Positions 1,296 through 62,612 of a stretch of DNA of 64,000 nucleotides are shown one piece after another. Positions within the stretch are counted from its first letter, which is position 1, and the number at the start of each line of letters is the position of its first letter. The notes under the pieces were generated by a model, which did no database searches, was not told where the DNA came from, and worked only from the letters and a program-made list of their open reading frames with translations. Source of the stretch: a virus. The stretch is taken from positions 29,369 to 93,368 of IMG/VR virus record IMGVR_UViG_3300008012_000022; one strand, 5' to 3'. The position numbers were made by a program, and so were the translations under genes.

Positions 1296-2322
1296 AATGA
1301 AAGTGATACTCCTTTTTTAATTTGCTTAGGGTTGGAAGAAGAGTCTTCATAGGAGTAATCGTTTGAGTGCCACGGAGCAACAAAGCAATCTGCTTTTTAT
1401 GTTCCTCTTCGTCGTAGGTCACTCGAAAGTGGTCGGTAATTTTGTTACCTTTCATCTCACCGAAATCAACATGTTTGACTGGTGGCATGAACCACAGTTT
1501 CTTGAAATCAATCAATTGAAAAAGTTTTAGTAGGCTATTAATGCCCCCTTTTACACCCTCGTTTTGAGCTAATGGTTTTTGATGGTCGTTATTGAATGCA
1601 ACGACCACATCTACATTAAGGGCGGCGAGTCTTGCCACAAGTCGCGGCGAAATACTGTTAGTAAATGCAACTATATTATTTGGAAATCCAGCTTGATACA
1701 GGGCCATTGAATCACCAATGGACTCGACAAGAATCAAATACCCACGTTCACGAATAGATTCACGACATTCATTTACCGTATAGTAAGGGTATAGCCAATT
1801 ATTTGCTTTGCCATTATGTAACCACTTAATACGTGAGCGACCAGTAATATCACGCCCCGAAAACCCATGGATCTTACCATCTTTATTTCGGATAGGAAAT
1901 ACTACACGGTTATATAAACTCCCCTTAGTCGCTACACCAGCAGAATAAGCTTTTTGCGTTGCGGCTGTAATGGAAGCATCCTTTTCTTTATGCAAAAAGA
2001 AATCGTAGTCTGGTAGCAATCGCCCCAAACAATCATCGGGAAATGTTTTTTCTTCGCTCAAAAATTGCCGCCTTTCATATCGTAACTGTTCTAGCTCAAA
2101 CTGAGAAACGTCTTCTTTCCCTGTTGTTTTCTGTAACAGTTTTTTAAAGCTTTGCGCTTTACCGTCACCATCAACGAAGTCAATCCAGACACCCGAATTT
2201 TTGTAAATCTTGAGTGCCGTTGGATTGTCACCGTGTCTGAACACAGCGGCAGTCTGCCAGTAGTCGCCGCGATTATGTAGTTTGTATCCGAGGTTGACTA
2301 AAATTGTATAGTAGTCACTCAT
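1285..2322 (-). CDS. DNA primase (DnaG-like, TOPRIM)
   Basis: RVVFPIRNKDGKIHGFSGR and LILVESIGDSMALYQAG; start moved to MSDYY (ATGA overlap with upstream gene). Confidence 0.85.
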   Translation of the reverse strand: MSDYYTILVNLGYKLHNRGDYWQTAAVFRHGDNPTALKIYKNSGVWIDFVDGDGKAQSFKKLLQKTTGKEDVSQFELEQLRYERRQFLSEEKTFPDDCLGRLLPDYDFFLHKEKDASITAATQKAYSAGVATKGSLYNRVVFPIRNKDGKIHGFSGRDITGRSRIKWLHNGKANNWLYPYYTVNECRESIRERGYLILVESIGDSMALYQAGFPNNIVAFTNSISPRLVARLAALNVDVVVAFNNDHQKPLAQNEGVKGGINSLLKLFQLIDFKKLWFMPPVKHVDFGEMKGNKITDHFRVTYDEEEHKKQIALLLRGTQTITPMKTLLPTLSKLKKEYHFHYDD

Positions 2323-3095
2323 AGTGCAAGCAAGTCGCACACCTGTCCCTCCCCTTTCAATTCAATAGTATAGGGAGCATCATGCTCAGACTTAACGTAA
2401 ATTTGAGAAGTTAACTCGTGTCGTTCATTGCGTCTACCTCGTGGTGACATACCACAATAAAACAAACCATTGTCCCATGCCAAACCACGAGACATAAACT
2501 TTTCTGGATCACCTATCTGTATAGTAGACAGGCATCGATTTAGACTAGTAGAAAATTCCTTGACTGTACACTCGTTTGAACTACACACCCATATCGAACC
2601 TTGATGTGGTTTGATAGTATGGATTCCATCTGCCTGCTCTAGTTTGTCAAACAGAATTTCACCGCTACTATGCTGGCGATACAGCTTGTTATTTGTCAAC
2701 CCTGCAATGTAAAAACAGTTTTGATAAAATTCGATTGTGTTAATGTGTGGATGGGAACCCAACCAGTCTTCGGTTTTAACATTCTCGTTATCGATGTCGA
2801 AACTTACTACTCGTTTATGTGCTGTGTCCGTAAGGTATACGCGCCGATTTACGTAAGCAATACCATGAACATCACCAACCGTTGGCACCGTCCACTTCTC
2901 ACGTAGTTGTAGATTGTGTTCCTTGTTGAAACAATAATGGTATAGAATTGTAGCTGAGTCATGATGGCGACTTGCCACCAGAAATCCGTCGCCAGTTTTG
3001 GCGAGTCCATAATATAATCCGTTGTCCTGATCAAGTGTCTCAATTGTAATGCCCTCGATCTTCAATACTTTATTTGATGTTGTAGCTATGACCAT
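2319..3095 (-). CDS. putative beta-propeller protein (DUF4915/TIGR03032-like)
   Basis: Repeated blade-like motifs GDVHGIAY, PHINTI, GIHTI, SRGLAW. Confidence 0.5.
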   Translation of the reverse strand: MVIATTSNKVLKIEGITIETLDQDNGLYYGLAKTGDGFLVASRHHDSATILYHYCFNKEHNLQLREKWTVPTVGDVHGIAYVNRRVYLTDTAHKRVVSFDIDNENVKTEDWLGSHPHINTIEFYQNCFYIAGLTNNKLYRQHSSGEILFDKLEQADGIHTIKPHQGSIWVCSSNECTVKEFSTSLNRCLSTIQIGDPEKFMSRGLAWDNGLFYCGMSPRGRRNERHELTSQIYVKSEHDAPYTIELKGEGQVCDLLAL

Positions 3096-3111
3096 AACTT
3101 TTTTACTGTCC

Positions 3112-3318
3112 TCATGTTTTAACTTTTGGTTCTAGTCCGTCCTTTATTATACGGAATCCTTCAATTTCATCAGGTAAGGAACGATAAACTTTCATCGATC
3201 CCGCCTGATACCTTACATACAAAACTACCTCGTCTTCCCAATTGCCAACTCGAACGACAAGGCGTGAATGAAATTCTTGTAACCTTTCTTTCGCTATATC
3301 TACTGCCTGTGGTTTCAT
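3112..3318 (-). CDS. hypothetical protein
   Basis: 68-aa ORF co-oriented and tightly packed. Confidence 0.6.
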   Translation of the reverse strand: MKPQAVDIAKERLQEFHSRLVVRVGNWEDEVVLYVRYQAGSMKVYRSLPDEIEGFRIIKDGLEPKVKT

Positions 3319-3333
3319 CCACCCTTCGCCGCT

Positions 3334-3468
3334 TTACTTCTCTGTAGACTTTTTACGTATCGATCCCACGTGCGGTAATCTTTGCGCTTTCTTAGTGCTC
3401 GTTTCCACCCGTTTTTCCAAAAGCTGTAGTTTTCTCCACTCAAAATAAAATTGTGTTTCGTAGTGCAT
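3334..3468 (-). CDS. small basic hypothetical protein (44 aa)
   Basis: MHYETQFYFEWRKLQLLEKRV... fills the gap on the operon strand; below the ORF track cutoff. Confidence 0.4.
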   Translation of the reverse strand: MHYETQFYFEWRKLQLLEKRVETSTKKAQRLPHVGSIRKKSTEK

Positions 3469-3509
3469 AATAAAAGGTCCAGCCAACAGCTTTATGCCAT
3501 CAACCGGAC
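3469..3509 (-). terminator. hairpin with U tract, putative intrinsic terminator
   Basis: GUCCGGUUGAUGGC-AUAAA-GCUGUUGGCUGGAC then CUUUUAUU; the G:U pairs only form on the minus-strand RNA. Confidence 0.55.
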
Positions 3510-3527
3510 AGCCCCTATTACACTAAT

Positions 3528-3758
3528 TTACCACGTTTTAATCGCCGCTTCACTCCCCGTCTCTAAGAACTCTAAAAGTTCTTTCTTAGTAATATCGTTG
3601 GTTAACGACTCAAATAATTGCCCCAAAAGTTTGACGCTAAAACCTGTGTCTGCTATAATTTCCTCATCAATGTGTTTGATAAGCTCAAGAGTTTCATCTT
3701 CTGAAAGCTCACTTGCTGCCTCCAATACATCTACTTCAATTGTTACTGTTGCATTCAT
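3528..3758 (-). CDS. hypothetical protein
   Basis: 76-aa acidic ORF; ATGA overlap with helicase stop. Confidence 0.65.
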   Translation of the reverse strand: MNATVTIEVDVLEAASELSEDETLELIKHIDEEIIADTGFSVKLLGQLFESLTNDITKKELLEFLETGSEAAIKTW

Positions 3759-5299
3759 GCTAATTCATTTGGTAATTCTGATTCATCAGATTGTTGAGGT
3801 TGAACATCACGATTCTCAAGGTGATGCACGATGTCTCGAAAGTCACCACGATCTTCGAAACTAAAATTTTCAAAATTTAGGTTAATGAAATTCTTTCTTG
3901 CTGGTCCGTCTGGATGATCAACAGGATTAATATGTCCAGCAACATCTTCTCCTAAGTGCCGCGCCAACAAACCAATTAAGTTGTGTGTTCCGAATTGTTC
4001 GCCCCATCTACCACGTTCATCTTGAGTTTTCCACCTTAACATGAAAGACCACGAAGCAAATTGGGGGATTAAATCTGACAGCGCCATTGCCCCTTCATGC
4101 TCAAGGTCTTGAACGCTGTTAGCATCATGACCTGACGTGATACCCAAACGATTACATTGAACACTGGTTGCCATAGATACAACAGGCTCACCATCAAATT
4201 TTAAATCTTTGGTTATCACTCGCTTAAATCCGTCAAGAGTCTTGCCAACAAATGCCCAATCACTACCACGTCCGAGATTATCAAAATCAGTCTTGAGATA
4301 ATCAAATGAGAAAACAGCTTCCTCACCCCTACCTACATTCTCATAGTAGACACGCTTGAGAAGACTACACATTTCTTCACTTGATAATCCTGCTACATTC
4401 TCATATAAGATCTTTGTTTTCTTTATGCGACTCCATACGTCACGGACCCGTTGAAATACTTCTTCGGCACTCCAATCATTGTAGCTACGCTTGCGCCATG
4501 AACCATCCTCCAACATAAATTGTGGGATGCCTGACATACCACTAACCATACGAAACATCAATTCGCGCTCTGACATCTCCCCATTATCAAAATGAATGAT
4601 AGGAACCTGATGCGTATATGAAGTTTTCATCGCCATATCGATGAGGAAAGAAGTCTTACCAGCTTTTGATCGTGCCGCAAGACAGAAAATGTTTCCTCCG
4701 CGAAGAACACTACCATAAATACGGTTCATCGTCTCGTATGGAGAGGGAAACCCAATGTGTTCAGGTGGATTGTTGGCGATACCTTCGATAAAATCTTCAG
4801 CACGCTCCGATAGATTGACTGTAGTTTTTTCGCCGCCAGCTTCAAAAGATGAGATAGCATCATTGTGTATCTTATCTACAGACGACATTAACTCATTGTA
4901 TGGAGTCGAAGGATCTACCTTTTTGACAAACTTCTTTTGTTCTTCTGCAACGTTCCACATTGCTCGACGGAACGTTACCTTTTTCAATTCTTTGATTGAA
5001 GTTAAAAAGACATCAAGGGGTATCTCATAATAAATTAATGACCTGACATATTCTGGTAGGTCAATGTTATCTACAAAGGATGTTCCTAATTGTTTGAAGC
5101 GCCCAATTAATATTGTGTCATCAATTGCTTCGCTGTTGTTTAGCGCCGAACGTATCAGCTTAAACATAGATACGTGAACCTTACTATCCTCTGAGTAGAA
5201 GTCGTCTTCTACGAGAAGTGTTGCTATCTGCCCCCACGTTTCCTGATGCTGTAGTAATCCACTCAGCACCTTCTTTTCTAGATCAAGTTCTTTAATCAT
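3755..5299 (-). CDS. dnaB: replicative DNA helicase, DnaB family
   Basis: N-terminal LEKKVLSGLL...EDDFY, Walker A AARSKAGKTS, NGEMS, FDYLK, SVQCNR; start at MIKEL. Confidence 0.9.
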   Translation of the reverse strand: MIKELDLEKKVLSGLLQHQETWGQIATLLVEDDFYSEDSKVHVSMFKLIRSALNNSEAIDDTILIGRFKQLGTSFVDNIDLPEYVRSLIYYEIPLDVFLTSIKELKKVTFRRAMWNVAEEQKKFVKKVDPSTPYNELMSSVDKIHNDAISSFEAGGEKTTVNLSERAEDFIEGIANNPPEHIGFPSPYETMNRIYGSVLRGGNIFCLAARSKAGKTSFLIDMAMKTSYTHQVPIIHFDNGEMSERELMFRMVSGMSGIPQFMLEDGSWRKRSYNDWSAEEVFQRVRDVWSRIKKTKILYENVAGLSSEEMCSLLKRVYYENVGRGEEAVFSFDYLKTDFDNLGRGSDWAFVGKTLDGFKRVITKDLKFDGEPVVSMATSVQCNRLGITSGHDANSVQDLEHEGAMALSDLIPQFASWSFMLRWKTQDERGRWGEQFGTHNLIGLLARHLGEDVAGHINPVDHPDGPARKNFINLNFENFSFEDRGDFRDIVHHLENRDVQPQQSDESELPNELA

Positions 5300-5746: not shown

Positions 5747-6157
5747 CTACTTTTCATAATCGTCAAGTATTTTTTGCACACTTTCAGATAAATCCTCTCC
5801 CTCGTAGATACGATACAGCTTGATACCATTGTCTTCGCAGAAAATTTCCTTCTTATCATCTCGTTTGAGTTGATCTAGAAAGTTCATTCTGTTACCCCTG
5901 TGAAAGAATTTATTAAATTCGATGTGTTGTTTGCCATCGACTTCTATCGCCACCTCCTGAGTGGCGTTGTAGAAGTCGATGGTCATCCTCGTTCCAACAA
6001 CAGGAAATTCTTCGAAAACTCTATCGCCGCGCCAAACTTCTTTTAAGATTTGTTTGACAGAAGCTTGTAGTTTACTGCGCGATTTAGCGTCCCAATCCAC
6101 CACATATTTAGATGAATTGACTTTTATTTTTCTGCCAGTCGCGCTTAGGAAAATCAT
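5747..6157 (-). CDS. Vsr/DUF559-like endonuclease
   Basis: IDFY...AIEVDGKQH...RDDKKEIFCEDNGIKLYRI. Confidence 0.8.
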   Translation of the reverse strand: MIFLSATGRKIKVNSSKYVVDWDAKSRSKLQASVKQILKEVWRGDRVFEEFPVVGTRMTIDFYNATQEVAIEVDGKQHIEFNKFFHRGNRMNFLDQLKRDDKKEIFCEDNGIKLYRIYEGEDLSESVQKILDDYEK

Positions 6158-7651: not shown

Positions 7652-7907
7652 AACTTTCTAAACTAAGATATGTTCTTTCGTGAATAATTTTAATCGGAAT
7701 ATCAAAAAAAGTTGGAAAAGGGACTCCAATCAATCCCAACCCCTCTAACTCTGCTGTTCCTAAATGAAGCTCTTTAACTAACGCTGAAATAGGATAGTTT
7801 TTAAGAACAAAATTCGCACTAGCCAGACTGCGGCGATAAGAAACAAGAAAATCAATGATGCGATCAGCAACGCTAAAGTCCTTGACGTTTAATTTCGTTG
7901 TGATCAT
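7644..7907 (-). CDS. hypothetical protein
   Basis: 87-aa ORF filling the gap. Confidence 0.5.
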   Translation of the reverse strand: MITTKLNVKDFSVADRIIDFLVSYRRSLASANFVLKNYPISALVKELHLGTAELEGLGLIGVPFPTFFDIPIKIIHERTYLSLESYG

Positions 7908-8997
7908 GTTGAACCATCTTACTTACTAATCCCTGAAAGTCAAGTAGGGGTTGCCAATTTAAATCTTCTCTTGCTGGAATTGAATCGCCCCAAAGTAATT
8001 CAACTTCATTGGGTCGCCAAAATTCAGGATTTACCTTTACAAATGTATCTGTAATACCTGTGCGAGTAACACGAAACGTTTCCTTCTGTCCCTTGCCGTG
8101 CCACTTACCTTCTATACCTAATTCCTTGAACGACAATTCAACAAATTCACGAATAGTATGAGTCTCATCACTAGCAAGAACATAATCTTTGGCATGGCGA
8201 TTATCGAATTCATAAACGCGCCCAACAGTATATGCTTCTTCACATCCATGAGCACTAGAAAAAGACTTGTCTTGATTTAACATGCGCCAAATTCCATCCA
8301 TGAAATCCATGCTATCACTCCAGTCTCGCTTAACTCCGAGATTACCTAATTCAAGTGGTGTAATAGGAACACCTCTATCTAGTTGATGTCTGATGCGTGC
8401 CACAGCTTTAGAAATCTTTCGTGTCACGAATTCTTCTCCCCGTCTAACTCCCTCGTGATTGAATAACAATCCTTGAACGGCATAAATGCCATAAGATTCG
8501 CGCCAGACTTTTACCATGTGATGCGCCGAACATTTTGATATACCATATGGTGATCGTGGTCGGAACGGATGAGCTATATCTTGTGGTGAATATTTTACGT
8601 CACCAAATTGTTCGCTTGATCCTGCATTATAGTAACGACAGTCTGGTGCATGACGCCTGATTGCCTCCAGTTGATACATGACAGGCATAGCATTGTTCAT
8701 CATGTGTTGCACTGGCATCTTCCAACTCGTGCCGACAAAACTATTCGCCGCAAAGTTGATAAAGTAATCAGGTTCTTCTTCCTGTATGATAAGGTTAGTA
8801 TTTATTTGATCTGTAACGTCAAGGTCTATCAGCTTGAACCGTGGCTCATCTTTTAGATGTTCAATGTTTTCGTGATTCTTGACAGATAGTCGGCGCACTC
8901 CACCTACTACTGTATCATCAGTATGCTTAAGCAGGTAGTCAACCATATTGCTACCATCTTGCCCTGTTACTCCTGTAATTAAAATTTTCTTACTCAT
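7873..8997 (-). CDS. gmd: GDP-mannose 4,6-dehydratase
   Basis: ITGVTGQDGS, FRPRSPYGISK, LFNHE, FVTRKI, LGNL...RDW, RPNEVELLWGD; start at MSKKIL. Confidence 0.95.
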   Translation of the reverse strand: MSKKILITGVTGQDGSNMVDYLLKHTDDTVVGGVRRLSVKNHENIEHLKDEPRFKLIDLDVTDQINTNLIIQEEEPDYFINFAANSFVGTSWKMPVQHMMNNAMPVMYQLEAIRRHAPDCRYYNAGSSEQFGDVKYSPQDIAHPFRPRSPYGISKCSAHHMVKVWRESYGIYAVQGLLFNHEGVRRGEEFVTRKISKAVARIRHQLDRGVPITPLELGNLGVKRDWSDSMDFMDGIWRMLNQDKSFSSAHGCEEAYTVGRVYEFDNRHAKDYVLASDETHTIREFVELSFKELGIEGKWHGKGQKETFRVTRTGITDTFVKVNPEFWRPNEVELLWGDSIPAREDLNWQPLLDFQGLVSKMVQHDHNEIKRQGL

Positions 8998-9140: not shown

Positions 9141-9448
9141 CGAATAAGTTCCCCCATAATAAATGTGTCAGGTCCACAACGTGTAGTATTGACAGCCTCT
9201 TGAATATCCAGAATAATTTGCTCCAACAAAATACCTTGATCTAACTTTATTTGGACTTCGTTGCGGTCCTTATCTGCTTGCGCCCACCGAACACCTTCGA
9301 CACGGAACACAGCTAGTTCTACTGCTGACTCACAGTTGCCACAACCCATACCTTCAATAGCTATGACTCGTGCATCTGCTGGATATTCTACTTTTTCGGC
9401 GCACCCAATTAGTGCTACTGCCGCTATGATTGATAGTAATAATTTCAT
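9137..9448 (-). CDS. heavy-metal-associated (HMA; CopZ/MerP-like) lipoprotein
   Basis: Signal peptide with lipobox ALIG-C; IEGMGCGNC metal motif; VEGV. Confidence 0.8.
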   Translation of the reverse strand: MKLLLSIIAAVALIGCAEKVEYPADARVIAIEGMGCGNCESAVELAVFRVEGVRWAQADKDRNEVQIKLDQGILLEQIILDIQEAVNTTRCGPDTFIMGELIR

Positions 9449-11100: not shown

Positions 11101-12037
11101 AACAAATACATGGGTTATTGTTTTCTGTATACCCCCCACAGTGAGGACAAACCATATAATTTTCCTCAAACTCTTCGAAAGTCATCAAATTCTCATAATT
11201 TAATTTCCAATATTCCCATTCGGGGGTTTCAGTCCCGTCCAATTGTGATGGGTCAATTGTTGCTGGTTTCTTATTCCACACTTCGAATGAATTATCTGCC
11301 CACGCATTAATGATACGACCTTCCTCAGGCCAATTACCACCTAATGCTAGCTGCCATTCAGACTCGTCAAGCGGCGGAAACGAAAACCTTTCAGTAGGTT
11401 TCTTTAAACAATATACCACCTTTGTGTCGGGGTGATGTTTCCAACAACTACCATCTGGATTGCTACGAACAGAATCTCTACCCTTGTCTATGAATAGCGG
11501 CGAACCATTTGGTAGTCTAACTGTATAGAATCTATTCAAATCTTCTGCTTCCAAATAATTTTGGACGCACTCTTCTGTCCACTTCAAGTCATCGAGCGGA
11601 CCCGGCCCTCCAAAATTCTTTGGTACGGTGAGATAGAAATCGCGGCCTATAAATTGTGCCCTTTCACTATACCCTCCGTTACCCTGATTACCTGCTAAGT
11701 CTACGTATGTATAACCTTGATTTTCTATCAGGTCAACAAAGCCTCTAATGTCTGCTTCGTATACTGGATTAGCTAGTTCATGATCTACTTGAATATAGAA
11801 TGCATACTCACTCTGACACTGACTGAATAATTGCACGGTGCCAGCACCACAACCAATATTGATCTGGTTGTTGATTACCTCCACCCTCTCTTCACGAGCA
11901 TACTTGTCAGCGTATCGTTCGCCACCATTGTTGAGAATCACCACCTTGTAATCGAAGTGACAAAGCCTCCTGATGGATGATAGTAGTTCCTCCAGTTCCT
12001 TTGGTCGATTGTAATCGAGTATAAGAATTTCTGTCAT
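11090..12037 (-). CDS. glycosyltransferase family 2 (GT-A)
   Basis: ILILDYNRP...LLSSI, VVILNNG, NIGCGAG. Confidence 0.75.
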   Translation of the reverse strand: MTEILILDYNRPKELEELLSSIRRLCHFDYKVVILNNGGERYADKYAREERVEVINNQINIGCGAGTVQLFSQCQSEYAFYIQVDHELANPVYEADIRGFVDLIENQGYTYVDLAGNQGNGGYSERAQFIGRDFYLTVPKNFGGPGPLDDLKWTEECVQNYLEAEDLNRFYTVRLPNGSPLFIDKGRDSVRSNPDGSCWKHHPDTKVVYCLKKPTERFSFPPLDESEWQLALGGNWPEEGRIINAWADNSFEVWNKKPATIDPSQLDGTETPEWEYWKLNYENLMTFEEFEENYMVCPHCGGYTENNNPCICYAR

Positions 12038-12582
12038 GCTATTATTCTAACCTTTTTAGGGAAGAACTTACATTCATATTCCCTCATATAATTCTCTGGT
12101 TTCGATTGGTGAAAGATAGGCATCGGCATATCATCTTCGAGTTCTTCGATAGGAAAGCGCCGATCATTAAACATACCGCTCATAGCTATACGATGATAAC
12201 CTTCGATAGCTTCCTCTGAACCTGATAGTGTAGCGAAAACTGTCAGTTTAGGTATGTGAATAAGACCTCTATCGTCATCGAACCTCATCACCTTCTCTCC
12301 ACACAGATAGTATGTTCCCCTGTGATTCTCTTCTAGATCGTTATCTATCAATTCTTCATCAGGTATATCGACTTGACGTTTCTCCCACCAACCCCTAATG
12401 TAATCTGCCATGTAGGTCTTGCCAGTTGCAGGGGGCATGATGAATAAATTATAATCATACTTTAAGTAGTCACTCCATATTTGATTCTGACAATTATAGG
12501 TCCACTCAACTTCTGGAAGTGTTGGTAATGCTGCGGCTAGAGGTGCTACAACCGCTGTCTTCAATAAATTTCGTCGCTTCAT
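12034..12582 (-). CDS. twin-arginine-leader protein with terminase-like fragments
   Basis: MKRRNLLKTAVVAPLAAA leader; MPPATGKTY P-loop; YMREYECKF. Confidence 0.6.
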   Translation of the reverse strand: MKRRNLLKTAVVAPLAAALPTLPEVEWTYNCQNQIWSDYLKYDYNLFIMPPATGKTYMADYIRGWWEKRQVDIPDEELIDNDLEENHRGTYYLCGEKVMRFDDDRGLIHIPKLTVFATLSGSEEAIEGYHRIAMSGMFNDRRFPIEELEDDMPMPIFHQSKPENYMREYECKFFPKKVRIIA

Positions 12583-12586: not shown

Positions 12587-12772
12587 CTAAATTATATTTG
12601 ATACTTTGTCATCTATGATGATTCGACCCTCATGAAGCTCCGCATACCAACCAACCTTCTTTGACCTGTCAACATAAACAAGTTCGTCTTGAATCCTGAC
12701 TTCTATCTCTTCCTCTTGTTTCTTTATAAAAGGAAGTGCACAAAATAATTTTAATAAATTTCGCCGCTTCAT
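12587..12772 (-). CDS. twin-arginine-leader mini-protein carrying the major-capsid C-terminal peptide
   Basis: MKRRNLLK leader; VDRSKKVGWYAE identical to the MCP peptide at 55338..55373. Confidence 0.8.
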   Translation of the reverse strand: MKRRNLLKLFCALPFIKKQEEEIEVRIQDELVYVDRSKKVGWYAELHEGRIIIDDKVSNII

Positions 12773-22474: not shown

Positions 22475-22779
22475 TGGGAGAGAAATCTATATTTGACCTG
22501 ATTGCGTTGTGGCATCATGATCGAAATTTAATTGAAGGTGCAACGGATAAAGACCAGTTTGCAAAACTTATTCAGGAAGCTGGAGAATTGTCAGTAAGTA
22601 TCTGTAAGCAACGATCACCGAAAGATGATATTGGTGATATGATTGTGGTTCTAACCAACATTGCCGAACGACACGGACTCACTATAGAAGAATGCGCCGA
22701 ACATGCTTATAACGAAATTAAAGATCGTCGTGGTAAGATGGTTGATGGAGTGTTTATCAAGGAAGATTGTGACGATTGA
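22474..22779 (+). CDS. MazG-like nucleotide pyrophosphohydrolase
   Basis: KLIQEAGEL, DDIGDMIVVL, AYNEIKDRRG. Confidence 0.85.
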   Translation: MGEKSIFDLIALWHHDRNLIEGATDKDQFAKLIQEAGELSVSICKQRSPKDDIGDMIVVLTNIAERHGLTIEECAEHAYNEIKDRRGKMVDGVFIKEDCDD

Positions 22780-51212: not shown

Positions 51213-52412
51213 TTAGGCAGATGTCATGCCACCGATCAACGTTGGATTAAGTGGTGAAGCATTTGATGTGAGATAATCTCCAGTCATGAAGAAACCAGCT
51301 TCAATGTTAGAAGCACCAGCAATCTGTGCTGAGAATGACATATCTACTGTCTCTGCCCCATCGAGGTCAGTTGAGAATGAGATGTTATCCAGAACTGCCG
51401 CTTTAAGTGCATAACCCAAACGTAGGATTGATGGGTCGCATCGATCATATAGTTTAACTGTAATCAGTCGTTCTACTTGACCAGCACAACCAGTCAATAG
51501 ACCAGCCGTTTGTCCTTCTGTCATATCAGCGGTCAACGCATTGACTGAAAGTGTCACGTCAATTGGAAATGTTAACGGACGAGAGTAAGGAAGGTCGTTA
51601 CCTAATTCGGTAAGTGCTTCACGTGCCAGTGGCACTGAAAGTGAAATTGATTGTGGGTGGACTTCTGCGAGTTTAGCACCACCAATACCGAGATTCGTTG
51701 CATCTTGAAGGTCTAATGAAATTTGACCGTCACGAAGAACGTCAACTGCTGAGTCACCTGTTGAAGCTACAGGAAGCACAACGGCACCTGTATCTGCTTT
51801 GGTTCCCACGGCAGGGTTAATTGATGGGTTGAATAGTCCACTTGATTTGCCCGTATAGAACGCGATGTTACCGCACTCCATAGAAACGTTGGCTGTAGGA
51901 ATATCTCCGACTGCCATATCAACTGAGTATTCAGTCACGAAAGCATTACCAAATCCAACAACATCGTGTTGGTTTCTGTTGGCCCATGCACCAGCGGCGA
52001 ATGCATCTTCACCTTCTGCTACAGTAACAGCGAACAAGTTCCGTTCGTTGTGGTCGGCTGATTCCGTTAGGTATCCAGAAATACCTTGTTTTGCTGGTTG
52101 GAAAGCTGCACCTGTGATTGACTCTTCGATCTCCATTCCTAAGTGGTGTTCATTTTCACCATCTGTAAGAAGATAACCGAATGAGCAAGTAGGAGTAAGG
52201 TCTGATGTTGTAACAGTCCCGATTCGTGCAAGCTGACCAAAAACTCGAATGTCTTGTCTAGCACCCGCAATGTCTACTTCGTATGAGAACGAGTTGATGC
52301 GGTGAAGCTGAGTAGCTTCAACTCCTGAGGGAGATGTCCCGTCACCATACAGTGTTCCTGTCTTAGTAACATAGAGTGCTTTTGATTGTGATAGAACGCG
52401 CGTTTTAGCCAT
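51213..52412 (-). CDS. major tail (tube) protein
   Basis: After the neck genes, followed by a strong terminator; internally duplicated pattern (RQDIRVFGQL / REALTELGND). Confidence 0.7.
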   Translation of the reverse strand: MAKTRVLSQSKALYVTKTGTLYGDGTSPSGVEATQLHRINSFSYEVDIAGARQDIRVFGQLARIGTVTTSDLTPTCSFGYLLTDGENEHHLGMEIEESITGAAFQPAKQGISGYLTESADHNERNLFAVTVAEGEDAFAAGAWANRNQHDVVGFGNAFVTEYSVDMAVGDIPTANVSMECGNIAFYTGKSSGLFNPSINPAVGTKADTGAVVLPVASTGDSAVDVLRDGQISLDLQDATNLGIGGAKLAEVHPQSISLSVPLAREALTELGNDLPYSRPLTFPIDVTLSVNALTADMTEGQTAGLLTGCAGQVERLITVKLYDRCDPSILRLGYALKAAVLDNISFSTDLDGAETVDMSFSAQIAGASNIEAGFFMTGDYLTSNASPLNPTLIGGMTSA

Positions 52413-52454: not shown

Positions 52455-53324
52455 TTAAGCGTTTGGGTAACGATAAATTGATAAATCAAAGTCTGCAAAT
52501 CCCATGATCAGATTTTTCTGTAATTTTTCCAGTGTTAGTGATTTTGTGATTTTAGAAGTCATCACCGATTCAACATACATATTCTCGGTATAGTTCGCCG
52601 CTAAATCTGTATATTTGTATGGGTAAGACTTCAGTGTGAATGCTCTTCCATATGGATAATCACCGAATGGAACAAGCTTGATACAGGTTTTATCCTGATC
52701 TTTAAAGTGTGATAAAACCCCGTCTGTAATATAATTTGAAAAAGACAATACGATCATTCTTATTTTGATCCGTGTGTCTACTTCGCCGCCTAATGCAACG
52801 GGATTATTTACATCTGTTTCTAATTTAAGAAAGACTGCGGGGAGAATATAGGTTGAATCATCCCTCTTATCTTCATTTGCAAACAGTTGGGTCATTAAGG
52901 GTGAGGCACTGTCGATAAAGTCGCCTTGAACCAATAGTTTTTCTTCGTCGTCCTCGGTAATGTAAACGTTAACTTCTTTGACGGTGTTATTTGCTGTTAT
53001 AGTGAGTCCTGTGCCGCTCGCAAATGGAACTATCACTCTGCCATCATTATAATCAATCATGACATCTGATGAGTCTCCTGAGACAAAGTTACCATTAACA
53101 AATATGCCACTATTAGGAACGTCAACATTATAGTCTGCCACTAGTTGCCTGAATCTACCCTGATACCCATGAAAAAGATTGGGTGGTATATCATTGTAAC
53201 CAGTAACATAAGCAAAGTTATTAGATTGATTTGTATTATAAGCTTTGCAATTATCAGACACTAATTCGTGTTCAACCCATAGTTGAAATGATGGTATGAC
53301 TTTATGTATGAACTGCGACTCCAT
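52455..53324 (-). CDS. putative tail completion/terminator protein
   Basis: Position; LPAVFLK...ALGG. Confidence 0.5.
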   Translation of the reverse strand: MESQFIHKVIPSFQLWVEHELVSDNCKAYNTNQSNNFAYVTGYNDIPPNLFHGYQGRFRQLVADYNVDVPNSGIFVNGNFVSGDSSDVMIDYNDGRVIVPFASGTGLTITANNTVKEVNVYITEDDEEKLLVQGDFIDSASPLMTQLFANEDKRDDSTYILPAVFLKLETDVNNPVALGGEVDTRIKIRMIVLSFSNYITDGVLSHFKDQDKTCIKLVPFGDYPYGRAFTLKSYPYKYTDLAANYTENMYVESVMTSKITKSLTLEKLQKNLIMGFADFDLSIYRYPNA

Positions 53325-53342: not shown

Positions 53343-53942
53343 CTATCTTTTTACCCCTAACTGAGCATAAAAGCGCCGAAACATTTTAGTTAGATACGAA
53401 ACGTTTCTAAATCTTCCGCCACGTATTTGTTTCTCTGTTTGAATAGCTATACCTGAACGAGACGAAGCTGAGTTCTTAAGAAGGTAGCGCCCGAATCCTG
53501 CAATGCCGACTTCGATACGTCGCGCCCAACTATCGGATGCCCATGGTAGTGGTGTTTTACTGTAGATCTTATCTCTTGATGGACCCAACATAGATATCTT
53601 AAACCTACCACCAGTAAAATTTACTTTAACCTTAGATTTTTTAGACAACTCCCGCCTAATAACTTCGGTAGGATGATCACCTCGCTTAAAACCAATATAA
53701 CTAAATAGGTTTCCGTAAGAACCGTCTAGTGTGCCAGAAAGATTATCTGCATGAATGCCAGCATCCAACTCCTGAGTCACAGCGTGTTCTTCGAACTCTT
53801 CTTGTAACTGTCGTTGTGCTACTTCTACCACCTCTTGAACCAATGGCACAGCTTGAGCCTCCACGATAGAACGATTTCTACCTTGTCCCATTTCCCGCAC
53901 TAGAGCAGGTATGTTAACACTGAAAGTCACCTTAGCTGCCAT
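53343..53942 (-). CDS. putative neck protein
   Basis: Position; basic C-terminus. Confidence 0.45.
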   Translation of the reverse strand: MAAKVTFSVNIPALVREMGQGRNRSIVEAQAVPLVQEVVEVAQRQLQEEFEEHAVTQELDAGIHADNLSGTLDGSYGNLFSYIGFKRGDHPTEVIRRELSKKSKVKVNFTGGRFKISMLGPSRDKIYSKTPLPWASDSWARRIEVGIAGFGRYLLKNSASSRSGIAIQTEKQIRGGRFRNVSYLTKMFRRFYAQLGVKR

Positions 53943-54373
53943 TATGTATCACGTCGTAGGTAGACGGTATAGTTGTCAGTTGACAACGAACCTTCAATGA
54001 TATTGTCAGTCACTAAACTGTAATTCTCGCTATCAATTTCGATAGTCGCCGCTTTCTTCAAAATTTCATAGTCAGCTTTCTTAACCTTTAGTCTGACTAT
54101 ATTTTCGGATGTAGGTAGAGCAGTATCATTATCTACATCGTCCGAGTTCCACCGTTCATAATGAACTCTTGCTTCAATGGTATGTTTAGTGCGTGTTGGC
54201 AGTGCACGCGATTCATTGTCGTTCCTTCCATACAACGGGTTGTGATCGCTATTAAAGGCAGTATACGACGCTTTTTCTACATAAGCATAGATCTCTCGCT
54301 TAAATGTATCATGAACGTCATCAATTACTTCTCTAATAGCTGCTTTCTCGTCATCTGAAAAAAGACTTGCCAT
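53942..54373 (-). CDS. putative head closure protein
   Basis: Position and size; IEIDSENY. Confidence 0.5.
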   Translation of the reverse strand: MASLFSDDEKAAIREVIDDVHDTFKREIYAYVEKASYTAFNSDHNPLYGRNDNESRALPTRTKHTIEARVHYERWNSDDVDNDTALPTSENIVRLKVKKADYEILKKAATIEIDSENYSLVTDNIIEGSLSTDNYTVYLRRDT

Positions 54374-54864
54374 TAATTAATTACTTCTTTGATTGGCGTA
54401 TATCCATCTTCTCCTGCAACTTGAAGTGGTGACGCCTTTTGGTTATTATATTGATATAGTAAATCTCTGAGGTTATCTTCTTCCATAGCGGCGAAGTCTC
54501 GGAAGCTTATAGCTACCTGATGCTTGCTCACCTTTTGGATTACTGAATCACCTTCTTTTACCATAGTTAGAGTATCTTTGAAATCTGTTGAACCTCCCCA
54601 CACGATACCACGAAGTGCTTCGCGATATGCTTTCTTAGCGTATTGGATGTCGTAAAGCTTTGTAAAGATACCCGACTCTATTGGGCATAGTTCAGGAGAG
54701 AAATTGCCAGACCCATCAATTTCAAAAAACTCATGAGTTAGACCGTTAAACTCTCCTAACGATGTCGCTATCCAACCCGAAACATAAGTAACGGAGAAGC
54801 GGCCCGTATCGTCTGGATACGAATACGTCACGATTTCCGATGCTAATGTTCCTACTGTGTTCAT
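54373..54864 (-). CDS. putative head-tail adaptor
   Basis: Position; VKEGDS.I motif. Confidence 0.5.
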   Translation of the reverse strand: MNTVGTLASEIVTYSYPDDTGRFSVTYVSGWIATSLGEFNGLTHEFFEIDGSGNFSPELCPIESGIFTKLYDIQYAKKAYREALRGIVWGGSTDFKDTLTMVKEGDSVIQKVSKHQVAISFRDFAAMEEDNLRDLLYQYNNQKASPLQVAGEDGYTPIKEVIN

Positions 54865-55280: not shown

Positions 55281-56402
55281 TTAAACCTTAAGACCTGTAA
55301 GTGCTCGATCTTCCAGCACGATTCGTGCTTCGTTCACTTCTGCATACCATCCTACTTTCTTAGAACGATCTACGAATTGGTCATCAGGAACCACGTTAAC
55401 ATCGCTTGATGCATCTTCATCCTGAACCACAGGACGGATAAGAGCATTAGACTTGTTACGATCAACTCCTAAGAGGATTTCGTCACTTGCCTGAGTGAAT
55501 GTTACTGGTGATCCTTCAAGCTCATTAATTTCGCTAAAGATTTTGTTGTATCGCTGATTCAGCCCCATTTCCAACAGTTCGATGATGTTCACGTCAAAGA
55601 TAGATGGGTATCCAGCTTTGCTCATGATTTCGTTTCTCATGTTGTCTGTGGCAGGAATCGATGATGTTCCCGAAGTTGCTTGACGGGTATTCACTGGCTG
55701 GTAAGCCATTGCGCGAATTTCCTGTGTCATTTCAGGTGACATAATCAGATCCGTGATACCGAAGCGTGCGCCACCTGCTGGTGTGCCTGTACTCCAGTTA
55801 CTCCAAATACGCTTAGAGCGAGTTAGGAGACGGTTGAAGTCGTCGATTGAGAGTTGGTTTGCATTGGTAGCATCGATCACGTGATTCCCCTGCTCAGCAG
55901 TTCCTTGAATCTTCGTGTCAGCTACGACTAGCGCACCGCACCATTGGTTGACACTTGACTTTTCTTGCAGAAGCAAGAATTCTTGTGCCATGCGAGTAAA
56001 GATCGCTGAAATTACATCAAGACGTGCCTGACGTGGATAACGCTTATTAACGCTCCATGCTGAGTTAAGGCTGTAGGTCTTGAATTTCAGTTCGTCATGC
56101 GCGAGATACATCTCGTTACTTGACAGACCACCTGCGACGGTCTGAGAGTGAACACGGATGTATTGCTCATCTGTAATGTCATGAAAGAGGTCCAGTGGGA
56201 TCGATGGGTTATCGTTCTCACTATATGGCATTCTCTTATAGAAATTAGAGAGAGTCGGCGCGTTATTAATAACTTCCGAAATTACAGGTCCAACTAACTC
56301 CGCAATCGCTGCACGCGCTTCATAGGCGATATCGCGATTTTTCGAAGCAATTGCCTTAATCAATGCAATCTGATCTTCTGTTCTTTTAAGTGTGATTTCC
56401 AT
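55281..56402 (-). CDS. major capsid protein (HK97 fold)
   Basis: 373 aa, after protease and decoration genes, followed by a terminator; ITDLIMSPE, VGWYAE. Confidence 0.85.
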   Translation of the reverse strand: MEITLKRTEDQIALIKAIASKNRDIAYEARAAIAELVGPVISEVINNAPTLSNFYKRMPYSENDNPSIPLDLFHDITDEQYIRVHSQTVAGGLSSNEMYLAHDELKFKTYSLNSAWSVNKRYPRQARLDVISAIFTRMAQEFLLLQEKSSVNQWCGALVVADTKIQGTAEQGNHVIDATNANQLSIDDFNRLLTRSKRIWSNWSTGTPAGGARFGITDLIMSPEMTQEIRAMAYQPVNTRQATSGTSSIPATDNMRNEIMSKAGYPSIFDVNIIELLEMGLNQRYNKIFSEINELEGSPVTFTQASDEILLGVDRNKSNALIRPVVQDEDASSDVNVVPDDQFVDRSKKVGWYAEVNEARIVLEDRALTGLKV

Positions 56403-57049: not shown

Positions 57050-58603
57050 TTATTTGTTTTCTTCGAGAGCCAAACCGTTCTGCTGGAATCTCTGAAATAG
57101 TGTTAAACCTTCTGCGTCTTCACCGATGTTGTTAAGAAGTGGAGAAGCTTGAGCGTCTAGCGTAGCTAGTTGCTTTGCCATATCAGGCGAATCTTCTTTG
57201 TCTTCTTTACCTTCATCGTTTTTCGATGCTTTGGTTGCAGTTTTAGTTTCGCCCTCTTTGCTCTTGTCGTCTTTGTTTTCTTCACCTTCACCTTTATTAG
57301 CTTCTGCTTCTGCTTTAGCAGCGGCAATTGCTTCCTTGTTGCGGTGAGCAAAAACAACCTTAACTTTCTCCAAATAAGAGGCGAATGCTTCATCGTCAGC
57401 AGGAAGTCCTTGAACTTCTTTTGCCACGATAGCTTCTTCTGCTTCTTCTAGAGCGAATTGGCTGGCGATTGTTGCCATACGAGTATTCAGTTTATCTGCT
57501 GCATCGCGAACTGAAATATCGTCTTGAAATTTGTTAATAGTATCCTTCGCATCTTTCAGTTGATCTTCAAGCTGCTTAAGTGCTGCTTGAGTGTTCTTCA
57601 TATCTTCCGAGTGTTGGTCAGACTGAGATTTCCAGTCTTTACCTTTTTCCTCAAAAAGAGTATTTAGTTTCTCAAACACTTCCTGCGCAGGACTGTCTGA
57701 GCTACCATCTTTAGAAGCGATAGATGAGATCATGTCGCTGACCTCTTTCTTAAATTTATCGAATTCTTCTTTATCCATAGCTATGTTAGTCTCGTTATCT
57801 GTTACATCTGTTTCTTTGTTTTCGGAAATTTTTTCATCACTTATGCTAGCAAGTGCGTAAATACCCTCTACCGCAGCAGCAGGATTCTCTGTTAATCCTA
57901 ATCCTACAGGTATTTTCTCACCGCGCAAAACGCGCCGAACCTTTTCCCCTTTATGTGTTTTTCCACTACCACCATTAAATTTCAACATTGCAGATAGTGA
58001 TTGGAATTGAGGGTCGTCAGCAGTAACAATTCTAGTGTCTTGAATAAGCTCACCATCACCTACTGCAACGTCGTATGAAGAAAAGGCAACCTCCCATGAT
58101 GCTGCATATGCATTATATGTATCATCATAAGGATCACTAGCTCTTGCTATAGCCTCTGCCAACTCTGGAAAAACAGAGCGGTAGATGAACCCTAACCCCG
58201 AAATATAGAATGAGTCACTTCTATTAATGTAGTCTAAAGGATCGCCAACAGCGAATGCTGGTTCATACTCAGCAAATCCAGCGCGGACTAAGTGACCTAC
58301 GATAATGTTTTTTTGGTGCTCAATATTAATTGGCTTATGCGGGAACTTAGGTAGCATCTTAGCTGCACCCATAGATGGAACCGCATCATCATTATCATTA
58401 AATTTGTTTACAATAGCGATAGACATCAAGATAGGCATGATGTCTATGTTATCCCATGGCGCGAAATTCTCAGGAATGAGAGATGAAGCTTGCGCCTCTT
58501 TTAACATGGAAGCTTTCGAAATATGATACTTATCATATTCTTCTTCTTTAATGGCGGTTATATTTGAACGCCATTCAGTTTTAAATTGATTTTTTTTACT
58601 CAT
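57050..58603 (-). CDS. prohead protease-scaffold fusion
   Basis: KPINIEH (His), ASWEV (Ser), GLGLTENPAA; C-terminal coiled coil. Confidence 0.75.
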   Translation of the reverse strand: MSKKNQFKTEWRSNITAIKEEEYDKYHISKASMLKEAQASSLIPENFAPWDNIDIMPILMSIAIVNKFNDNDDAVPSMGAAKMLPKFPHKPINIEHQKNIIVGHLVRAGFAEYEPAFAVGDPLDYINRSDSFYISGLGFIYRSVFPELAEAIARASDPYDDTYNAYAASWEVAFSSYDVAVGDGELIQDTRIVTADDPQFQSLSAMLKFNGGSGKTHKGEKVRRVLRGEKIPVGLGLTENPAAAVEGIYALASISDEKISENKETDVTDNETNIAMDKEEFDKFKKEVSDMISSIASKDGSSDSPAQEVFEKLNTLFEEKGKDWKSQSDQHSEDMKNTQAALKQLEDQLKDAKDTINKFQDDISVRDAADKLNTRMATIASQFALEEAEEAIVAKEVQGLPADDEAFASYLEKVKVVFAHRNKEAIAAAKAEAEANKGEGEENKDDKSKEGETKTATKASKNDEGKEDKEDSPDMAKQLATLDAQASPLLNNIGEDAEGLTLFQRFQQNGLALEENK

Positions 58604-60992: not shown

Positions 60993-61210
60993 AGGTCAAA
61001 ATTAAAGAGCAAGAAGTGGTCTACGTTACAGAGATTAGAACAGGCACGACGTTTATTAATGAGCGCGGAGAAAAAGACTATCAACGAATTCGCCGCTCTA
61101 GTCTTCCTGCCCCTCATCCACTGTTAAAGCCTAATGGACAAGTTTCAAACGACATTGGTTGTTTTGATTACTGGCGTACCAACGATACATTTTTTAAAAA
61201 AACAAGTTGA
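60989..61210 (+). CDS. hypothetical protein
   Basis: Start MKVKIKEQ. Confidence 0.55.
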   Translation: MKVKIKEQEVVYVTEIRTGTTFINERGEKDYQRIRRSSLPAPHPLLKPNGQVSNDIGCFDYWRTNDTFFKKTS

Positions 61211-61484: not shown

Positions 61485-61856
61485 ATGCCCTGTAAAGATA
61501 AAAAATCACAAGCTGAATCGGCTCGAAAACATTACCTAAAAAATAAAAAGGTAATAAAAGCTAAAGCGGCGAATTTTAAATCTGAAACGGCAATACCACG
61601 AAATAAAAAATTTGTTCGCGAATATTTACTTAAACACCCTTGTATAGACTGTGGAGAAAGTGATCCAATCGTGTTAGAATTTGATCATGTTCGTGGAATT
61701 AAAAAAGGAAACATATCTAATATGGTAAATCAAGCATACTCTATTAAAAGAATTAAACAAGAAATTGAGAAATGTGAAGTGAGATGTGCTAATTGTCATA
61801 GAAGAATAACATTTTATCGCAGAATAGAGCAGTCTGGTAGCTCGTCAGTCTCATAA
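61485..61856 (+). CDS. HNH endonuclease
   Basis: CIDCG, LEFDH, EIEKCEVRCANCHR. Confidence 0.9.
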   Translation: MPCKDKKSQAESARKHYLKNKKVIKAKAANFKSETAIPRNKKFVREYLLKHPCIDCGESDPIVLEFDHVRGIKKGNISNMVNQAYSIKRIKQEIEKCEVRCANCHRRITFYRRIEQSGSSSVS

Positions 61857-61962: not shown

Positions 61963-62169
61963 GTGGCAAATCCAACAACGCGACTGATAGCAGAGACTAT
62001 CCGTGATAGGGGCAAAACACGTAAAATCCCCTATAATTTTATGACTTCAAAAAAAAGACACAAACGACACATTAGTAAAAGATTGCGCCGATCTTATGAG
62101 AAGTCTTGTGTAACTAAAGATGGCATGGGTGCCTGTAACAGAAATTGGGGCACTGGAAAAGCAAAATGA
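61963..62169 (+). CDS. small basic hypothetical protein
   Basis: 68 aa, K/R-rich, GTG start. Confidence 0.4.
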   Translation: MANPTTRLIAETIRDRGKTRKIPYNFMTSKKRHKRHISKRLRRSYEKSCVTKDGMGACNRNWGTGKAK

Positions 62170-62232: not shown

Positions 62233-62321
62233 TGTATGTTGTCACCCTTTTCTGTCTGTAAAACAGTCGTCGTTAAACGTAGGGATGGTCCGACAAGTGG
62301 TTCGATTCCGCCAACATACAT
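62233..62321 (+). tRNA. tRNA-Tyr(GUA)-like RNA without a canonical D arm
   Basis: Acceptor TGTATGT/ACATACA; CTGT-CTGTAAA-ACAG; GGTTCGATTCC; long variable region. Confidence 0.5.
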
Positions 62322-62324
62322 TAT

Positions 62325-62398
62325 CTCTCTCTGGTGTAAGGTGGTGTGCACATCTGATTGAAGCTCAGAGGGTGCGGGTTCGATTCCTGCGGGAGAGA
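62325..62398 (+). tRNA. tRNA-Phe(GAA)
   Basis: TCTGA-TTGAAGC-TCAGA; GCGGG-TTCGATT-CCTGC. Confidence 0.8.
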
Positions 62399-62409
62399 CT
62401 TAATTTTCA

Positions 62410-62502
62410 GGATGGCGAAATAAGCTGGTGCTTATCAAACTCTTCAAAAGTTTAGGTTCCACGAGAATTGCGGAACAGGTTCAATTCCAACACCATCCAC
62501 CA
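62410..62502 (+). tRNA. tRNA-Sec-like / opal (UCA) tRNA
   Basis: AAACT-CTTCAAA-AGTTT; 6-bp D stem ATAAGC-TGGT-GCTTAT; long variable arm; 8-bp acceptor with one mismatch; encoded CCA. Confidence 0.7.
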
Positions 62503-62504
62503 AT

Positions 62505-62576
62505 GGGACTGTAGTGAAATGGATATCACGATTGACTACGGATCAATAAATGAGGGTTCGACTCCTTCCAGTCCTA
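62505..62576 (+). tRNA. tRNA-Arg(ACG)
   Basis: GGGACTG/CAGTCCT; ATTGA-CTACGGA-TCAAT; GGTTCGACTCC. Confidence 0.85.
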
Positions 62577-62584
62577 CTTTTTTC

Positions 62585-62612
62585 TTGACAGCGCCGAATT
62601 TTCTGTTATATT
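62585..62612 (+). promoter_or_regulatory. sigma70-type promoter
   Basis: TTGACA-N16-TATATT with TGn extension, 6 nt before the ATG. Confidence 0.7.

Follow-up and report, generated by a model that had tools for sequence, protein, structure and literature searches.

Short words scattered over a genome in very high number have repeatedly led to proteins that read them: Chi, the DNA uptake sequences (DUS) and uptake signal sequences (USS), the FtsK-orienting polar sequences (KOPS) and the highly iterated palindrome HIP1 each revealed a DNA-reading machine. To our knowledge, nearly all hyper-abundant dispersed words are bacterial. The heptamer TCGSCGC (S is C or G; reverse complement GCGSCGA) is such a word in a viral genome. 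It was studied in a stretch of 64,000 nucleotides, referred to below as the window, comprising bases 29369-93368 of the 93,368-bp IMG/VR record IMGVR_UViG_3300008012_000022; the record is linear, with a completeness of 67% by CheckV. In this phage, the word is present in large excess, independently of coding, with no polarity and with an even spread, and its excess is absent from the sampled genomes of candidate hosts. TCGSCGC is proposed, with a probability of roughly 0.4, to be a duplex-DNA recognition word kept by selection in this phage lineage and serving a putative reader and function.

Abundance and shape of the word

The first-pass annotation, made from the letters of the window, had described dispersed copies of the octamer TTCGSCGC. 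A recount found every listed position, together with two copies that had been overlooked (TTCGGCGC at 19066 and GCGCCGAA at 24986). The window holds TTCGCCGC 17 times, GCGGCGAA 11 times, TTCGGCGC 9 times and GCGCCGAA 15 times, i.e., 52 octamers against about 1.4 expected from the base counts. The annotation had put this expectation at about one copy for a GC content of about 38%; the near-nil expectation stands, while the GC content is 39.9%. In the whole record (about 40% GC), 68 octamers are found against 2.1 expected, and TTCGCCGC is the commonest 8-mer in spite of this composition.

The annotation proposed a recognition word written into codons and took the octamer as its unit; the present counts support a signal at the level of DNA. 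The real unit is the heptamer TCGSCGC with the preferred flanks AAA-n-T...T. It has 80 sites in the window (Table 1) and 108 in the record, which corresponds to 1.16 per kb, or about one per 860 bases, and to about eight times the expectation from proteins and codon usage. The record contains 128 CGSCG cores, and 84% of them carry the T...C flanks that complete TCGSCGC. Around the heptamer, T is preferred at -1 (63% of the sites) and at +8 (58%), and positions -5 to -3 are A-rich (44-51%), giving the extended preference AAA-n-T-TCGSCGC-T.

Scanning the spacer of TCG-n-CGC showed enrichment for one intervening base, C or G (6.8x and 10.9x). With A or T at the centre, or with 2-4 bases between the halves, the counts remain at about 1x, and the zero spacer (TCGCGC) reaches 2x. 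Read in the orientation of the motif, the central base is C at 60 sites and G at 48. The centre must be a G:C pair, and the orientation of this pair is not read. From a centre that is blind to orientation and restricted to G:C, we infer a reader of duplex DNA rather than of single-stranded DNA or RNA. The word itself is not palindromic, and its palindromic completions TCGSCGA and GCGSCGC have one site and no site in the record, respectively. Avoidance of these completions is not claimed, as only about 5 and 2 copies are expected under a null inflated by the motif's own codons.

Independence from coding

An excess of this kind might carry no separate signal and simply follow from coding, from codon usage and from the avoidance of restriction sites. 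Strong avoidance of short words narrows the codon choice, and Ala-Ala, Gly-Glu and Arg-Arg are common peptides. The annotation had itself named codon-shuffled and high-order Markov nulls and the reading-frame distribution as checks, a frame-bound use of Ala-Ala or Ala-Glu being the explanation to be feared. Against the 108 sites observed, synonymous-codon shuffling within genes gave 13.2±3.2 (maximum 25), permutation of whole codons gave 8.4±2.7, and synonymous swaps that never create avoided words gave 6-27 over 12 runs. Markov models of orders 0-5 expect 6.8, 7.1, 6.9, 19.9, 39.8 and 54.4 sites, the high-order values being inflated because the sub-words of the motif feed them. The enrichment outlasts all of these nulls.

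In agreement with the annotation, the copies are almost all coding: 107 of the 108 sites lie within open reading frames (ORFs), with a sole exception at window 16957. Relative to the genes, TCGSCGC reads along the coding strand 47 times and along its complement 60 times, and the sites occupy all three frames in both orientations, i.e., six classes of frame and orientation. The encoded peptides are accordingly diverse (AA, GE/GD, RR, AP, SA, SP, FAA, IGA and others), and an explanation bound to one frame fails. Synonymous choice would permit the word at 651 peptide positions, and 16% of them contain it, where about 2% would be expected. The codons that spell it are minor ones: GCG accounts for 20% of the codons for Ala, GGC for 14% of those for Gly, CCG for 11% of those for Pro and CGG for 5% of those for Arg, and 10%-15% of the genome's GCG/GGC/CCG/CGG codons fall inside the sites. 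Thus, the signal resides in the DNA and is written into codons, as the annotation had suggested.

Eight sites could be aligned with homologues. Conserved residues are used at three of them (GGE, APT and the R in VRR), and at the other five the residues depart from the consensus of the relatives, for example LKK -> FRR and SSN -> AAN. None of the eight is an insertion. In-frame insertion of a mini-element was considered and rejected, the alignable sites being free of gaps relative to homologues.

Neither coding nor composition nor restriction avoidance accounts for the excess. Because it survives the shuffles and because the sites use all frames on both strands, the by-product explanation is very improbable, and the tests named by the annotation already refute it.

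Avoided words

Short-word avoidance was assessed against synonymous shuffles of the same genome. In the record, GTAC occurs 36 times against 232 expected (16%), CCGG 9 against 86 (10%), CCAAG/CTTGG once against 128, CCTAG not at all against 55, CCCAG 6 times against 77, CCWGG not at all against 33, and GAGGAG twice against 35. Zero copies were found of CTGCAG, CAGCTG, GAGCTC, CTCGAG, GGATCC, GGTACC, GTCGAC, AGCGCT, GGCGCC, GCGCGC and CYCGRG, with a single copy of CGATCG; at least 14 GC-containing 6-bp palindromes lack any copy. CCHAG (CCGAG excepted) resembles one asymmetric target. This pattern is the signature of heavy restriction pressure on phage DNA that is probably unmodified; it suggests that the host has many restriction systems and that the phage DNA lacks global modification.

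The avoided words stand at 0-16% of expectation, whereas TCGSCGC is enriched about 8-fold and does not show the depletion of a restriction target. Word avoidance is not the cause of its gain, as the avoidance-constrained shuffles (6-27 sites) demonstrate. The avoidance makes an 8-fold gain of a GC-rich word more notable.

Orientation and spacing

The two orientations are equally frequent in the record (54:54) and are mixed in every 10-kb bin, with no switch along 93 kb; a runs test on orientation gave 61 runs against 55±5 expected. Each 10 kb contains 6-15 sites. The counts for individual genes are close to a Poisson distribution (27.5 on 28 degrees of freedom), and the sites are evenly spread along genes. 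Spacing is slightly more regular than random (coefficient of variation 0.83, P=0.03), and the largest gap is 3,158 bp (P=0.04). The only close inverted pair (window 34820/34830) lies inside a gene, and no terminator-type pairs were found between genes.

The lack of polarity agrees with the view of the annotation that this does not look like a polarised Chi site, although polarity alone is a weak ground for rejection in a phage genome. A Chi-like protective word could be read by a host nuclease of the RecBCD/AddAB type or by a phage nuclease-helicase and would slow the degradation of linear DNA. TCGSCGC is short, GC-rich, non-palindromic and over-represented, as such a word should be, and AGCGGCGAA contains AGCGG, the Chi of Bacillus subtilis. 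Because nucleases can enter a linear or permuted phage genome at either end, equal orientations would be useful everywhere; therefore, missing polarity is no bar to a Chi-like reading. The C/G-only centre is a better argument than polarity against a reader of single-stranded DNA: Chi is read single-stranded, whereas an orientation-free centre restricted to C or G would be natural for a duplex reader and not for a single-strand one. With the sampled Bacteroidota genomes also showing no excess of the 7-mer, a Chi-like role is improbable.

Near-cognate words

Neighbours of TCGSCGC that differ by C-to-T change at the outer CpG cytosines are enriched about 2.2x (TTGSCGC 48 against 21.6 expected, TCGSCAC 30 against 13), while most other single-substitution neighbours are at or below expectation. 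After masking of the motif, the top 7-mers of the genome are near-cognates enriched 2-4x: TTGGCGC (34 vs. 11.7), TCGCGCC (20 vs. 5), TTCGCGC (27 vs. 8.8), TGGCGCT (28 vs. 10) and TCGGCAC (15 vs. 4.5), the expectations for such GC-rich neighbours being themselves inflated by the codons of the motif. The near-cognates may be decayed or weak sites.

These neighbours bear on the possibility of a neutral drive, in which sequence-specific repair or gene conversion turns near-cognates into TCGSCGC with no benefit to the phage, for example through very-short-patch-like mismatch correction coupled to a methyltransferase, or through conversion that is biased near the sites of an endonuclease. A drive of this kind would fill every frame, employ minor codons and override conserved residues, as is seen here; HIP1 has been discussed in such terms, and the phage carries two HNH endonucleases, a RecA-like protein and a PD-(D/E)XK nuclease. 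However, a T:G-to-C:G drive would deplete TTGSCGC and TCGSCAC, and their excess is therefore the opposite of its trace, since very-short-patch-type repair should remove deamination products. Searches of the 67%-complete record found neither C5 nor N4/N6 DNA methyltransferases (PF00145 and PF01555 were searched) nor a Vsr gene, and fixing the T...C flanks would need transversions. The methyltransferase result also bears on the modification site that the annotation had named as a possible reading. The excess of deamination-type neighbours fits better with the decay of sites that selection keeps replacing, and neutral drive is considered unlikely.

Related phages

For comparison, relatives were represented by 175 loci, together 2.27 Mb, that surround related portal genes of 35-58% identity. 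In these loci, TCGSCGC occurs at 0.118 per kb and accounts for 20% of CGSCG cores, against 1.16 per kb and 84% here, and the extreme excess is confined to this phage. Near-complete relatives have one site in 98 kb and seven in 81 kb, which is the level of the reversed-word control. Under the codon-aware null, the pooled excess in relatives is 1.6x against 1.2x for the control word. About 11 independent related lineages reach 4-8x, on 4-9 sites each.

The clearest case is the IMG/VR contig G675 (43 kb, 36% GC, portal 39% identical), which has 15 sites against 3.6±1.8 expected and one copy of the control word, with T at -1 in 9 of the 15. It does not avoid CCAAG, and its avoidance profile differs from that of the phage studied here; therefore, it probably faces different restriction systems. 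The occurrence of weak versions of the word in relatives with other avoidance profiles favours a cause within the phage lineage.

Several candidates for similar signatures were rejected. A private dispersed word for each relative was ruled out, as the over-represented words of L070, L069, L060 and L029 are tandem repeats. In L070, a phage of otherwise 34% GC, a GC-rich unit of 20 bp (CCTGCGCCCTGCGCCCCCGA) is repeated in tandem about nine times at the contig end (positions 1-200). L287 has 9 sites in 6.8 kb, but its flanks and avoidance profile differ. When IMG/VR was scanned for paired copies of the word, the matches listed were mostly GC-rich contigs, and none among them had the same signature.

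Genome context and candidate hosts

The record codes for a portal-like protein, DnaE-type polymerase, DnaB helicase, DnaG primase, a RecA/Rad51-like protein and a PD-(D/E)XK nuclease, as well as for ribonucleotide reductase, NAMPT, several glycosyltransferases, an ORF of 4,456 amino acids and five tRNAs. Searches with this phage among cultured phages gave no match. Near-identical DNA was found in 22 public runs labelled as freshwater metagenome.

The tRNA genes form a cluster at window 61403-63731 (+) with two Met, one Phe(GAA) and two Arg(ACG) tRNAs; the latter would decode CGN codons, which are common within TCGSCGC sites. The 4,456-residue ORF is a single gene at window 35034-48404 (-). On mapping of metagenome contigs, foreign contigs, loose ends and depth spikes gather in it at about 38430-38470 and 47460-47700, which suggests short segments that are repeat-like or widely shared. 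A small protein with a heavy-metal-associated (HMA) domain is encoded at window 9137-9466 (-). The protein at window 12034-12582 (-) has a weak match to a twin-arginine translocation (Tat) signal and the N-terminus MKRRNL; a small ORF beside it shares this leader, in which the RR codons make up the TCGSCGC site at window 12761.

Shine-Dalgarno sequences precede only 8 of the 82 ORFs of the whole record, and Flavobacteriales account for 4 of the 15 metagenome-assembled genomes (MAGs) with related phage contigs. Because of these two features, Bacteroidota are the best guess for the host. The regions upstream of the 82 ORFs are A-rich, like those of Bacteroidota and some cyanobacteria.

The annotation had named a HIP1-like host signature among its explanations. 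Under this reading, the host chromosome is saturated with TCGSCGC as an uptake sequence, a HIP1-like word or sites of an abundant protein, and the phage has gained the word by adapting to the host machinery or to its mutation and repair spectrum. A density of about 1.2 per kb, equal orientations, the use of all frames, fairly even spacing and A/T-rich flanks are like those of uptake sequences and HIP1. The extreme excess is found in one phage of 175 related loci, as if tracking one host, and the phage has clearly been shaped by host restriction systems.

The genome searches argue against this. The extended word ATTCGSCGCTA occurs 5 times in the record, which scales to about 200 copies per 4-Mb genome; it had no more than 12 copies in any of 401 Bacteroidota genomes and no more than 9 in any of 301 Flavobacteriales genomes, in both sets at or below the reversed control. 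TTCGSCGCT was at the control level in five MAGs with related phage contigs, and the bare 7-mer was at the reversed-control level in five complete Bacteroidota genomes. Moreover, relatives with different avoidance profiles carry weak versions of the word, and we know of no mechanism by which a phage of the virulent type accumulates an uptake sequence. A host signature is unsupported so far, the word being non-palindromic and about 700 genomes of Bacteroidota, taken as candidate hosts, being negative; this origin is rated as rather unlikely.

Candidate reader proteins

When 60 ORFs were scanned against Pfam and 8 against PHROGs, AP2 was the only recognisable sequence-specific DNA-binding domain. 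The record has three AP2 domains: two in HNH_3+AP2 proteins (Table 1) and a third match at record 14286-14435 (-). The AP2 match of the 187-residue protein exceeds the Pfam cut-off of 33.3 bits, and the other two are weaker. The gene of this protein directly follows that of the ribonucleotide reductase small subunit, and the small third match adjoins the NAMPT gene. No AP2 domain was found in the records of eight relatives. The GCC box of plants (AGCCGCC/GCCGCC) is bound by the AP2/ERF domain. According to a 2026 preprint on phage AP2 proteins (10.64898/2026.02.23.707548), AP2 proteins often bind short G/C-rich motifs. The three AP2-domain proteins are thus the only recognisable candidates for the reader, and on domain matches they are a lead only.

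Table 1. TCGSCGC sites, all located by word count, and candidate reader genes in the 64,000-nucleotide window
Feature	Position	Strand	Evidence or remark
TCGGCGC site	279..285	+	
GCGGCGA site	1622..1628	-	
GCGGCGA site	1644..1650	-	
TCGCCGC site	2264..2270	+	
GCGCCGA site	2841..2847	-	
TCGCCGC site	3326..3332	+	
TCGCCGC site	3542..3548	+	
TCGCCGC site	4830..4836	+	
GCGCCGA site	5143..5149	-	
TCGCCGC site	6024..6030	+	
GCGGCGA site	7830..7836	-	
GCGCCGA site	8523..8529	-	
TCGCCGC site	8745..8751	+	
TCGGCGC site	8890..8896	+	
TCGGCGC site	9396..9402	+	
GCGGCGA site	11497..11503	-	
GCGCCGA site	12157..12163	-	
TCGCCGC site	12761..12767	+	coding strand spells RR of MKRRNL leader
GCGGCGA site	13115..13121	-	
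TCGGCGC site	13490..13496	+	
TCGGCGC site	13745..13751	+	
GCGCCGA site	14460..14466	-	
GCGGCGA site	14812..14818	-	
TCGCCGC site	16957..16963	+	sole site outside ORF calls
GCGGCGA site	17897..17903	-	
TCGGCGC site	19067..19073	+	octamer overlooked by first-pass annotation
GCGCCGA site	20578..20584	-	
TCGCCGC site	21559..21565	+	
GCGCCGA site	22438..22444	-	
GCGCCGA site	22694..22700	-	
GCGGCGA site	23147..23153	-	
GCGCCGA site	23447..23453	-	
GCGGCGA site	23889..23895	-	
TCGGCGC site	24377..24383	+	
GCGCCGA site	24986..24992	-	octamer overlooked by first-pass annotation
GCGCCGA site	26878..26884	-	
GCGGCGA site	28273..28279	-	
TCGCCGC site	30537..30543	+	
TCGCCGC site	31797..31803	+	
GCGCCGA site	32051..32057	-	
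GCGGCGA site	32533..32539	-	
TCGCCGC site	34065..34071	+	
TCGGCGC site	34099..34105	+	
TCGCCGC site	34622..34628	+	
GCGCCGA site	34820..34826	-	inverted pair with 34830
TCGCCGC site	34830..34836	+	
TCGCCGC site	35231..35237	+	
GCGCCGA site	36037..36043	-	
TCGCCGC site	36439..36445	+	
GCGCCGA site	36992..36998	-	
TCGCCGC site	38858..38864	+	
TCGCCGC site	39067..39073	+	
TCGGCGC site	39300..39306	+	
TCGCCGC site	42028..42034	+	
TCGGCGC site	42425..42431	+	
TCGGCGC site	42788..42794	+	
GCGGCGA site	42849..42855	-	
GCGGCGA site	43329..43335	-	
TCGCCGC site	44759..44765	+	
TCGCCGC site	44840..44846	+	
TCGCCGC site	44945..44951	+	
GCGGCGA site	45571..45577	-	
TCGCCGC site	45908..45914	+	
TCGGCGC site	47231..47237	+	
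GCGCCGA site	47819..47825	-	
GCGCCGA site	48849..48855	-	
GCGGCGA site	51994..52000	-	
TCGCCGC site	52595..52601	+	
TCGCCGC site	52783..52789	+	
GCGCCGA site	53373..53379	-	
TCGCCGC site	54046..54052	+	
GCGGCGA site	54488..54494	-	
TCGGCGC site	56255..56261	+	encodes conserved A-P-T of capsid-like protein
GCGCCGA site	57932..57938	-	
TCGCCGC site	61090..61096	+	
GCGGCGA site	61566..61572	-	
GCGCCGA site	62085..62091	-	
GCGCCGA site	62591..62597	-	
TCGGCGC site	62671..62677	+	
TCGGCGC site	63242..63248	+	
HNH_3 + AP2 protein, 187 aa, candidate reader	16115..16678	-	HNH_3 42.4 bits, AP2 36.9 bits, both above Pfam cut-offs
HNH_3 + AP2 protein, 155 aa, candidate reader	18143..18610	+	HNH_3 48.4 bits; AP2 26.4 bits, below 33.3 cut-off

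Proposed role of the word

Under the preferred reading, that of a duplex-DNA recognition word, selection acting on the DNA itself within the phage lineage would hold TCGSCGC at about one copy per 0.86 kb. The word would be written into any available frame through minor codons and, where needed, through conservative amino-acid replacements. A predicted sequence-specific protein would read it by binding or modifying the DNA, and the word may in this way mark, protect or organise the phage genome.

A more specific form of this proposal is possible, though doubtful: TCGSCGC may be a phage-private "self" word recognised in either orientation by a duplex-reading phage protein, perhaps a domesticated AP2-domain protein. 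Such a word could mark the phage chromosome or shield it. The bound protein might, for example, be a roadblock that stops host exonucleases, or it might label DNA as self or non-self during replication or packaging or for a nuclease of the phage. It would then be a phage-borne analogue of Chi or DUS working with no polarity, and the weak versions in distant relatives might be earlier stages of the same system.

Several points weigh against selection for a recognition word. The downstream flank preferences of the mildly enriched relatives differ from those of this phage; therefore, these relatives may show another phenomenon. Portal searches of IMG/VR, metagenome contigs and GTDB genomes found no relative above 58% identity. 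Contigs from four public runs are identical to window 30001-50000, save at two repeat-like spots; the population is clonal and therefore offers no variation for testing purifying selection at the sites. A host cause may still apply, as the sampled genomes are those of candidate hosts only. No reader protein was identified in the Pfam and PHROGs scans, and the record they draw on is incomplete by the CheckV estimate. The HNH-AP2 genes look like mobile homing endonucleases and may be just that; furthermore, the AP2 link comes from a single genome, the mildly enriched relatives lacking AP2.

In other respects this phage is under extreme pressure to lose short words, yet it has this one, and the cost in codons and residues is measurable. 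Should the reader be a phage protein, the word would represent a new means by which a virus labels or protects its DNA, and it offers a 7-bp handle for pulling down the reader. If the host carries it, the word would be a sequence-only marker for host prediction in an uncultured phage group.

Comparison with known dispersed words

A literature search for the words gave no relevant result. The comparison below is made with known systems as classes. Chi sites (e.g., GCTGGTGG, AGCGG and GCGCGTG) are likewise short, GC-rich, non-palindromic and over-represented, and the phage word could similarly protect linear DNA. Unlike it, Chi is recognised in single-stranded form and shows co-orientation with replication; the phage word has a symmetric, C/G-only centre and a 54:54 distribution. 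The KOPS and the SpoIIIE recognition sequences (SRS), read by FtsK and SpoIIIE, are over-represented words on the scale of 8-mers and are read on duplex DNA, but they are strongly strand-polar, whereas the phage word is non-polar.

The GCC box of AP2/ERF proteins and phage AP2 proteins such as CasPRs are brought to mind by the three AP2 domains of this phage and by the overlap of CGCCGC with GCCGCC. However, two of these domains lie in genes resembling HNH homing endonucleases, and their binding to TCGSCGC is only putative. Moreover, a monomeric AP2 domain reading an oriented CGCCG would not give fixed flanks with a flipping centre.

HIP1 of cyanobacteria (GCGATCGC) shares with the phage word a short GC-rich sequence at about one copy per kb, far over expectation, in genes and in all frames; the function is unsettled for both. 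HIP1 is an 8-bp palindrome of host chromosomes across a phylum, while the phage word is a non-palindromic 7-mer of one phage lineage. HIP1 is also discussed with methyltransferases, none of which were found in this record, and GCGATCGC has no copies in this genome, which has one CGATCG.

The DUS of Neisseria and the USS of Pasteurellaceae are non-palindromic, occur at about one copy per kb in equal orientations, are mostly genic and evenly spaced and have A/T-rich flanks, as does the phage word. Uptake words are read on duplex DNA, and the same is presumed for TCGSCGC. The differences are that uptake words belong to chromosomes of competent bacteria and are often paired at terminators, whereas the word described here is carried by a phage with 107 of 108 sites in ORFs, and no sampled candidate host has it in excess. 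TCGSCGC thus behaves like HIP1 or an uptake sequence, yet it lacks the palindromic symmetry of the one and the terminator pairs of the other, and the sampled genomes do not have it in excess. It belongs to the hyper-abundant dispersed genomic words and is a variant of them that is carried by a phage.

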